From assembly GCF_003334785.1 (NCBI RefSeq), contig NZ_QOWV01000003.1: a stretch of DNA of 64,000 bases; one strand, 5' to 3'. Below the pieces are notes generated by a model that searched no databases, was not told the DNA's origin, and saw nothing but the letters and a program-made list of their open reading frames with translations. The translations under genes were made by a program, and so were the position numbers. This document shows positions 62,940 to 64,000 of this stretch, one piece after another (within the stretch, counting starts at the first letter, position 1; the number at the start of each line of letters is the position of its first letter). Source of the stretch: Escherichia coli (GTDB lineage Bacteria; Pseudomonadota; Gammaproteobacteria; Enterobacterales; Enterobacteriaceae).

Positions 62940-64000
62940 AGCATTATCTCCGCGTCGCCTCTGGACGGCTCCCTTGTTGATAGCAATAAAGTAAACCGGA
63001 CTGGGCCATGAAGCTACTGCTAATCAGACAGTCATCCGTAAGCAAAAGCTGCGATATGCGGTTCAAACGCGCTGTAAGGCTCTCTGGCGAGTGTTTTAAA
63101 GAAGGTAGTCGAAATCATGGTGCAGAATTCGCGGCGCTCTCATAGAGTGACTGGCGAAGCCAGTTGAAACAAGCGTAGCGGAGTTCGAGCAATCAATGAG
63201 AAATCTGGGCGAGCTTTAAGCTTTACCGCGCTTCTTAACTTTTGAGTCTGTTTGGCTCTATAAGGATAAGCCTGCCGCCGTGGAAATTTTCGGACGCTAT
63301 GCCTGAGAGGGGCGCTTCCAAACCTAGGGCATCCACTTTTTCGCTCCCAACTTATCTGGCTGCATTTACACCGCGAACACGTTGAACGTTAGCAGCTTCT
63401 GGTTCGTATTTGGTTGTTACGCAGGAGAGGTAAAAACGGCAGGTTTACTTTTGACGGCAACGCCATAAGACACCAAACAGCAGAGAAGTGTAATTGTTAA
63501 AAATGTTAAAACATAACTTGTTCTTTAAGATGTAAACCCTTCCTCGGGGGGGAAGCCGGACATATCAACCATAAGGCCATCTGAGAAGATAGCCTGTAGG
63601 TTGCTCGGTTCCCCTTGCCAGATGAAGATCAAGTCTTCCTCGTGGTGTGACGACCTTTCTTGAAAGATGCATTATGCGCAAAAGAAGCTACTCAAGAATC
63701 CGCCGATAGCTACTTTCACCCTCTGCTTGGCTGCATCAAACGCTTGCGCGCCCTACCTACCACAATCAACGTTACGCAGAGTTCCCATCCTGACGTCTTC
63801 CGCTAAACAGCGGTGATCTCCACCTACCCGGACCGGTTTACCGCATGAGGTAGGTGTCAGGAGAGAAGCTAGCACACCATCATTTTAAAGAAAAGTCATA
63901 TATATCATATGGCTGCGTTCATATTCTGAACGCAGTTATCGATGTTAACCTAAAGGTATGAGAACACTGTCGTTTTTCATATACAAAGGGTGCTTCGGCT

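Follow-up and report, generated by a model that had tools for sequence, protein, structure and literature searches.

Initiators of the pT181 family nick DNA in the loop of a conserved hairpin (ICRII) with a stem of about 9 bp, which lies beside the divergent repeat that they bind, and pT181-type origins double as recombination junctions. MobT-type Rep_trans relaxases, found in integrative and conjugative elements of Gram-positive bacteria, are related to the initiators RepC and RepD. Here we describe a hairpin of comparable layout in Escherichia coli, a perfect 23-bp palindrome at positions 63913–63935 of a 64,000-nt stretch of contig NZ_QOWV01000003.1 (assembly GCF_003334785.1), referred to below as the window, whose end lies 3.5 kb into an island inserted at leuX, downstream of yjgR and ahr. 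It is probable, in our judgement, that the palindrome belongs to the island backbone as a sequence-specific DNA site that acts in cis and is recognised by a protein, and that it is not an RNA terminator. Tentatively, and relying on a structural model and on analogy, we propose that it could be the Rep_trans-type origin hairpin of a 338-residue protein (p338) encoded next to it in related islands.

The palindrome (CTGCGTTCATATTCTGAACGCAG) consists of two 9-bp arms, CTGCGTTCA and TGAACGCAG, around the 5-nt spacer TATTC, and five of its nine stem pairs are G-C; in ECONIH5 the arm pairing extends to 11 bp. As RNA the hairpin has a folding energy of -20.2 kcal/mol on the plus strand (z -5.7) and -16.4 kcal/mol on the minus strand (z -3.9), and for each strand as DNA the value is about -10.4 kcal/mol (z about -5). 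Perfect 9-bp stems are not rare in themselves, since seven distinct ones occur in the window (stems of at least 9 bp, loops of 3–8 nt) against about two in first-order Markov simulations; the other six (2123–2147, 9426–9448, 23667–23688, 39604–39627, 40053–40078 and 49767–49790) are probably core-gene terminators. The palindrome stands above chance because it is conserved, not because of the length of its stem. It also lacks the multiple copies of repetitive extragenic palindromes (REP) and bacterial interspersed mosaic elements (BIME): the exact 23-mer is found once in the window, and the surrounding segment has a median of one place per genome in the 612 genomes that carry it. Taken alone, the hairpin is small and looks ordinary, and the main result is the corrected gene model around it.

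A sequence-only reading of the window had placed the palindrome at 63912–63934, just upstream of a possible plus-strand gene start. The observation is partly confirmed: the palindrome is real and its sequence was given correctly, but it was mis-located, lying 1 base further to the right, and misread. Its neighbour is a gene on the minus strand. At the window end, tblastn gives 94% identity to residues 139–156 of a DUF1643 protein; the intact ortholog matches Pfam family PF07799 with an E-value of 1.3e-41, and the gene is annotated as frameshifted in the RefSeq record of the identical sequence of E. coli Nissle 1917. When five variants are compared in pairs, third-position changes dominate in the DUF1643 frame and synonymous changes outnumber non-synonymous ones about 3:1. 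The DUF1643 stop codon occupies window positions 63945–63947, and the palindrome therefore lies 9 nt 3' of a minus-strand gene, not 5' of a gene as had been supposed. The gene next to the palindrome had also been suggested to be the first real cargo gene of the island; DUF1643 instead belongs to the conserved island backbone. The general suggestion of an operator or a terminator, that is, of some cis-acting element, is still viable, whereas its specific form, an element upstream of a plus-strand gene, is not.

The conservation of the palindrome was best seen in 12 loci that were obtained by BLAST of the gene region or of the DUF1643 protein, i.e. not chosen by the palindrome itself. In these loci the 23-mer contained two singleton changes, compared with 24 minor-allele counts in the adjacent 20 nt toward the coding sequence. 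In alignment A2, one of the 23 palindrome columns varies as against a fraction of 0.53–0.75 of the flank columns, and the 23-mer is invariant in alignment A1, among islands with differing flanks. It is still intact in Pectobacterium, Enterobacter and Klebsiella, where identity between the p338 proteins has fallen to 78–84%. The spacer is more variable than the arms (GAATA, CAATA, GAAAA and TAATA all occur), and the stem variants found, a G-to-A change in locus L008 and a T-to-C change in L021, L148 and L149, all break a pair, none of them with a compensating change. What is conserved is the sequence rather than the structure. Among DUF1643 genes at 53% identity or below, no comparable hairpin was found.

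The island exists in two forms that differ on one side of the palindrome. In type A, which the window represents, some 500 nt of non-coding DNA separate the palindrome from a backbone segment at 63175–63416. In type B the same slot holds the hypothetical gene for p338, which is encoded on the DUF1643 strand and starts 124–125 nt beyond the palindrome; this form is carried by ECONIH5, DETEC-C31, several plasmids, pLAO33 among them, and Citrobacter, Pectobacterium, Enterobacter and Klebsiella. No remnant of p338 was detected in the window by tblastn or blastn. The nucleotide homology that seven type B loci share with Nissle begins exactly at the outer edge of the palindrome (position 9414 of locus L001, which is window position 63913). 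In locus L064, DUF1643 is replaced by a gene for a 408-residue P-loop protein whose stop lies 277 nt from the palindrome, and homology spans the type A segment and ends 2 nt past the inner edge of the palindrome (L001 9438). With one boundary at the outer and one at the inner edge, the 23-mer has therefore been retained whichever neighbour it has. DUF1643 has also lost its 5' part through four different deletions (ending at L001 9503, 9529, 9552 and 9586), all of which spare the palindrome and at least 67 nt. No such palindrome is present at the other module boundaries of the island (L001 9971, about 10650, about 12260 and 12923). The replacement gene of L064 (8439–9665, metagenomic) encodes a GTPase-like protein with a Gly/Ala-rich hydrophobic tail, and both the palindrome and the conserved non-coding block described below are kept in this locus.

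The origin reading rests on the protein encoded by the type B slot. A model of p338, built with AlphaFold from a 17-sequence alignment drawn from 73 homologs, was confident (predicted local distance difference test score 83.5, predicted template-modelling score 0.80), and the predicted fold is that of the Rep_trans rolling-circle initiators of the pT181 RepC/RepD type. Its 9+5+9 layout makes the palindrome a perfect inverted repeat, extrudable and short-looped, with arms of about 9 bp; no other perfect hairpin with a stem of at least 8 bp is present in the p338 region of locus L002 (2600–4700). When loci were sought with the p338 protein alone, the palindrome lay 124–125 nt upstream of the ATG in three of four. 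We suggest that p338 might recognise the palindrome as a hairpin or cruciform and nick it, so that it would serve as a double-strand origin or an oriT-like site, and probably also as a site of autoregulation where the transcription unit begins. In type A islands a conserved non-coding block of about 345 nt would have taken the place of the initiator gene, leaving an origin with no cis-encoded initiator, which might be usable only in trans or be kept for a second role.

Several observations weigh against this proposal. The window and about 596 E. coli genomes retain the palindrome yet have no p338, and in a Yersinia lineage the palindrome has been lost between GATAA repeats while p338 is intact. 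Upstream of p338 homologs of 39–50% identity (Pseudomonas, Burkholderia and Ewingella) no such hairpin is present. Co-inheritance of hairpin and initiator thus does not hold across the p338 family: the hairpin is kept in the enterobacterial loci (the three of four above), lost in Yersinia and absent from the distant homologs. The spacer varies at two positions, which would be unusual if the nick fell within the loop. No family in Pfam, NCBIfam, PHROGs or the sequences of the PDB matched p338 at the sequence level, and its assignment to Rep_trans is therefore by predicted fold only. Finally, the origin model does not account for the identity of the arms, 18 out of 18 positions, with palindromes found at the promoters of MarR_EPS regulators (see below). 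It is because most carriers are of type A, the Yersinia lineage has lost the site, the distant homologs have no hairpin, the loop varies and the biochemistry is predicted only that we advance the origin reading no more firmly than as a possibility. The Yersinia deletion can be followed in Yersinia enterocolitica (L147 2385–2400), where the palindrome and 12 nt are cleanly removed between the two GATAA repeats; the intact 338-residue gene downstream of the deletion occurs on many Yersinia contigs. The distant p338 homologs sit in a three-gene operon that adjoins a resolvase and a DUF6538 integrase. No relation was found between p338 and the 281-residue neighbour.

The features of the island in the window are as follows.

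60389–60473, plus strand: tRNA-Leu(CAA), leuX, the insertion site of the island.
60522–62474, plus strand: island integrase, with homologs that have DUF6538 and Phage_integrase domains.
62607–62939, minus strand: NIPSNAP family gene, part of the backbone, lying downstream of the palindrome and the block in the same orientation.
63175–63416, no strand assigned: backbone segment common to both island forms, at the far edge of the replaceable slot (blastn matches to L002 2542–2699, L004 2505–2734 and L021).
63535–63878, minus strand: conserved non-coding block of about 345 nt, with its core at 63535–63794.
63879–63912, minus strand: AT-rich leader outside the palindrome, with degenerate motifs common to all island variants.
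63913–63935, no strand assigned: the palindrome, characterised above by sequence, folding and conservation.
63945–64000, minus strand: 3' end of the frameshifted DUF1643 gene, comprising its last 18 codons and the TAA stop (63947–63945); the gene runs past the window.
63958–64000, plus strand: start of the MRTLSFFIYKGCFG open reading frame (ORF), an antisense artefact of 80 codons in the full sequence.

The last 500 bases of the window match E. coli Nissle 1917 at 100% identity and are present in 612 of 5426 complete E. coli genomes, O157:H7 included. In Nissle, leuX is followed by a 636-residue site-specific integrase, NIPSNAP on the minus strand, about 1 kb of unannotated sequence, the frameshifted DUF1643 gene on the minus strand and a small serine recombinase, and further on by an XRE-type helix-turn-helix (HTH) regulator and variable cargo. 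The backbone of the island family consists of the DUF6538-type integrase, NIPSNAP, DUF1643, the small serine recombinase and the XRE repressor, whose gene occurs in all island loci that extend far enough to include it; the cargo seen in the family includes the defence systems AbiJ, AIPR, type I restriction-modification and SduA. The longest ORF of the integrase begins at a TTG at 60522, while the RefSeq start is at 60564. DUF1643 genes are also common on plasmids, with 1164 matching records, among them L006 1267–3959 on an Acinetobacter pittii plasmid and L007 2995–3483 on an IncC plasmid. One plasmid copy directly follows a pair of genes for an HpaII-type cytosine methyltransferase and a restriction endonuclease, and DUF1643 has been listed in the literature among the contents of SCCmec elements. 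These contexts hint at a role in DNA repair or anti-restriction. No solved structure for DUF1643 was found.

Just outside the palindrome lies the leader, whose motifs keep a fixed spacing in both island forms: four or five nucleotides and TGATA, then TTTTCT or TTTTAT, then TAAA, and then GTGCTA(G/C)C. Its likeness to a promoter (ATGATA, 15 nt, TAAAAT) is weak because the -10-like hexamer is not conserved, and a consensus scan called no sigma-70 promoter at the palindrome or leader in L001 or L002. Beyond the leader, in the slot that holds the p338 gene in type B, comes the block, which begins at a shared GTGCTAGC motif, corresponds to columns 70–415 of alignment A2 (window 63535–63878, minus strand) and is far more conserved than its surroundings: its 261-nt core is 95–100% identical in 13 variants (L122 included) with flanks at 58–79%. 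The block is not annotated in any of 596 E. coli genomes, an Rfam E-value scan of 60000–64000 returned only the tRNA, and no match was obtained in plasmids, phages or viral contigs. In L001, RefSeq skips locus tag RS16535, between RS16530 and RS16540, exactly at this unannotated stretch. A protein-coding function was considered and rejected, as the longest ORFs are of 48–64 residues and the differences are mostly non-synonymous. Folding of the block gives modest z-scores (-2.4 and -3.3), and covariation contributes a term of -0.41 kcal/mol in a sequence too invariant for a test, with wobble-preserving and pair-breaking changes in about equal numbers. We regard the block as a candidate non-coding RNA (ncRNA) or other cis-acting element. 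Nothing of relevance was found in the literature on small RNAs of the leuX island, Esr41 being an unrelated RNA of OI-43. Two conserved elements, a site of 23 bp and a block of about 345 nt, have remained unannotated in strains as well studied as Nissle 1917 and EDL933.

One alternative to an origin is an operator. The palindrome would then be bound by a dimeric HTH or winged-helix regulator, either the XRE protein of the island or one with MarR_EPS-like specificity, and would control the unit that leads outward from it, which is the block in type A and p338 in type B. The palindrome has the perfect dyad symmetry, the invariant arms and the variable spacer (of 5 bp) expected of paired half-sites, the spacing to the shared leader motifs is fixed, replacement of DUF1643 leaves the palindrome with the downstream unit, and the XRE gene accompanies the island in every locus of sufficient length. 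The same arms at the same spacing also occur elsewhere, upstream of MarR_EPS genes. A metagenome scan for CTGCGTTCA-N5-TGAACGCAG gave at least 120 stretches, about 30 of those listed being copies of the island; among the matches listed, 60 of the 91 non-island loci had a MarR_EPS homolog within 700 nt of the palindrome, and in many of these listed loci the start of the MarR_EPS gene was as close as 1–25 nt. The neighbouring protein, of 110–130 residues, belongs to the TIGR04176 MarR_EPS regulators (E-value 2e-46, above the curated cutoff), and its gene, sometimes preceded by an RfaH-like gene, stands in polysaccharide export loci. The palindrome upstream of MarR_EPS genes is likely an undescribed operator, and as such a testable candidate for an uncharacterised regulator family.

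Examples from the metagenome loci (L023–L142) are L079 6421–6443, L087 2275–2297 and L118 802–824, and the flanks recurring at MarR_EPS sites are CCTAGACT-nn-palindrome or TTGATACA-palindrome-TGTATCAA. Extra imperfect copies of the palindrome in the polysaccharide loci were no more frequent than in shuffled sequence (3 against 0–4), Rfam scans of eight MarR_EPS loci returned nothing, and nothing relevant to the palindrome or to a MarR_EPS operator was found in the literature. Five palindrome matches were set aside as coming from ORF-poor, probably eukaryotic contigs that look unrelated to the island; these contigs (L028, L052, L073, L080 and L130) share the flank atgatcagatgatctgatgctgtcg...cgacgacttacatatg, and L028 is nearly free of ORFs over 4 kb.

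The island site and the MarR_EPS site share identical arms, CTGCGTTCA and TGAACGCAG, as well as the length of the spacer and the variability of its sequence. They differ in that the MarR_EPS palindrome abuts the start of a regulator gene or operon in GC-rich environmental bacteria, whereas the island site follows the end of a gene and is about 125 nt from the next one, and their flanks have nothing in common past the 23 bp. Against an operator in the island, tblastn and a profile search found no MarR_EPS homolog in the window or in 11 island loci. Each island has a single full copy of the palindrome, and the region upstream of the XRE gene itself contains no similar site. The distances from the palindrome to TGATA and TAAA are fixed, as a promoter position would have it, yet no sigma-70-like promoter was called alongside and the -10-like hexamer varies. 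All in all, we consider it unlikely that the palindrome is such an operator.

The location of the palindrome after a gene naturally raises the question of a stem-loop at the 3' end of the DUF1643 transcript, acting as a weak or factor-assisted terminator, or as a stabiliser, that would insulate the next unit. In all variants that have DUF1643, whether intact or truncated, the palindrome is indeed found 9–10 nt past its stop, the RNA hairpin of the minus strand is stable (the -16.4 kcal/mol and z -3.9 given above), and on an Acinetobacter plasmid a DUF1643 gene of 54% identity also has a small, though unrelated, hairpin after its stop. It resembles an intrinsic (Rho-independent) terminator in being a stable, G+C-containing stem-loop a few nucleotides after a stop codon, but it has no U-tract on either strand, the minus strand continuing as CCAUAUGAU and the plus strand as UUAUCGAUG, and a terminator scan called none at the palindrome in L001 or L002. 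Its sequence is conserved and shows no covariation: in the four loci with stem changes (L008, L021, L148 and L149) these only break pairs, and no pair is changed on both sides. Moreover, the palindrome is kept in L064, which has another gene in place of DUF1643 and the upstream stop 277 nt away, and also in loci in which only the last 20–57 DUF1643 codons remain, whereas the DUF1643 genes at 53% identity or below do without a comparable hairpin. This explanation appears quite unlikely to us.

It is also conceivable that in type A islands the palindrome is a relic or hitch-hiker that has no present function and has merely persisted through the recent divergence of this form. Among the type A loci that were obtained without recourse to the palindrome, it and its flanks are equally invariant, and type A therefore offers no independent evidence of selection; three diverged type A copies fetched from E. 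coli all had the standard flanks and added no information on this point. DUF1643 is a pseudogene here, and the Yersinia lineage manages with p338 and no palindrome. Against this, the palindrome is intact in both island forms despite their divergent flanks, it is intact at the 78–84% p338 identity of Pectobacterium, Enterobacter and Klebsiella, and four independent deletions have spared it, which makes a mere relic distinctly improbable.

The homology breakpoints at either edge of the palindrome in many loci, together with a serine recombinase gene about 670 nt away in all variants, could suggest a recombination site or hot spot, i.e. a crossover site of the serine recombinase or a palindrome-stimulated breakpoint behind the swapping of modules. 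When the palindrome was sought before other island genes, as the sequence-only reading had proposed, no other full copy was found; there is only a partial copy, consisting of the spacer and one arm (TTCAAAATCCGAACGCAG, 15 of 18 matches), some 240 nt past the XRE gene, across the core module from the palindrome. This partial copy (L001 13006–13040, outside the window) reads CTGGTTTCA-AAATC-CGAACGCAG, with three mismatches and 0.03 expected by chance; it overlaps a small palindrome, AACGCAGTKGCGTT, and its position is conserved in several island variants. The res, hix and gix sites have a 12+2+12 layout. The island palindrome is like res site I, hix and gix in being dyad-symmetric DNA near a gene of the resolvase/invertase family, but its odd 5-bp centre and 9-bp arms do not fit that geometry, one full and one partial copy do not make two full sites, no inverted or excised arrangement of the core was seen in about 40 loci, and the other module boundaries have no such palindrome. 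A role of this kind is very unlikely.

The weakest explanation, that of the sequence-only reading, in which an operator or terminator directly precedes a plus-strand gene, is almost certainly wrong: the MRTLSFFIYKGCFG (MRTLSFF) frame opens at an ATG at 63958, not 63948, the AAAGG noted before it is real (63952–63956) but as a Shine-Dalgarno-like sequence stands only 1 nt from the ATG, and although the frame remains open for 80 codons in the identical Nissle 1917 sequence rather than stopping just past 64000, a check that is blind to antisense ORFs, it is antisense to the PF07799-supported DUF1643 pseudogene ending at 63945, has a synonymous to non-synonymous ratio of about 1:1 in the same five-variant comparison, which indicates no coding constraint, and is annotated as a plus-strand gene in none of the 612 matching genomes, so that the suggested gene start, at 63948 or 63958, is not real.

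Returning to the origin reading, one may extend it to the island as a whole. The palindrome and p338 might together form an unannotated replication and mobilisation module of rolling-circle or relaxase type that belongs to proteobacterial, tRNA-inserted islands with DUF6538-type integrases. The window form would then be a non-autonomous derivative that has kept the origin and exchanged the initiator for the element of about 345 nt, an ncRNA or an element resembling a single-strand origin that would be expressed or primed from the same site. This extension is speculative and we hold it to be rather improbable. About 11% of complete E. coli genomes, among them Nissle 1917 and O157:H7, carry the type A form. 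If the palindrome were the working site of p338, this would provide a replication or mobilisation mechanism for widespread enterobacterial islands that carry defence cargo and are presently annotated only as 'hypothetical protein' plus integrase.

How close, then, is the island palindrome to the pT181 hairpin? In pT181 the origin lies inside the rep gene of small Gram-positive plasmids, whereas here it would lie in a tRNA-inserted proteobacterial island with a tyrosine integrase. Unlike the pT181 initiators, p338 has no detectable sequence similarity to PF02486, the loop of the island hairpin is variable in sequence, the copy in the window has no initiator, and nicking is only inferred. On the other hand, the island palindrome has the perfect stem of about 9 bp and the loop of 5–6 nt that characterise ICRII; in type B islands it adjoins the gene for a protein with a predicted Rep_trans fold; it is conserved while the neighbouring sequence diverges; and, like the origins of the pT181 type, it is a mosaic junction. 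Of the elements compared here, it most resembles a rolling-circle origin hairpin, and may be a variant of this known type of site.

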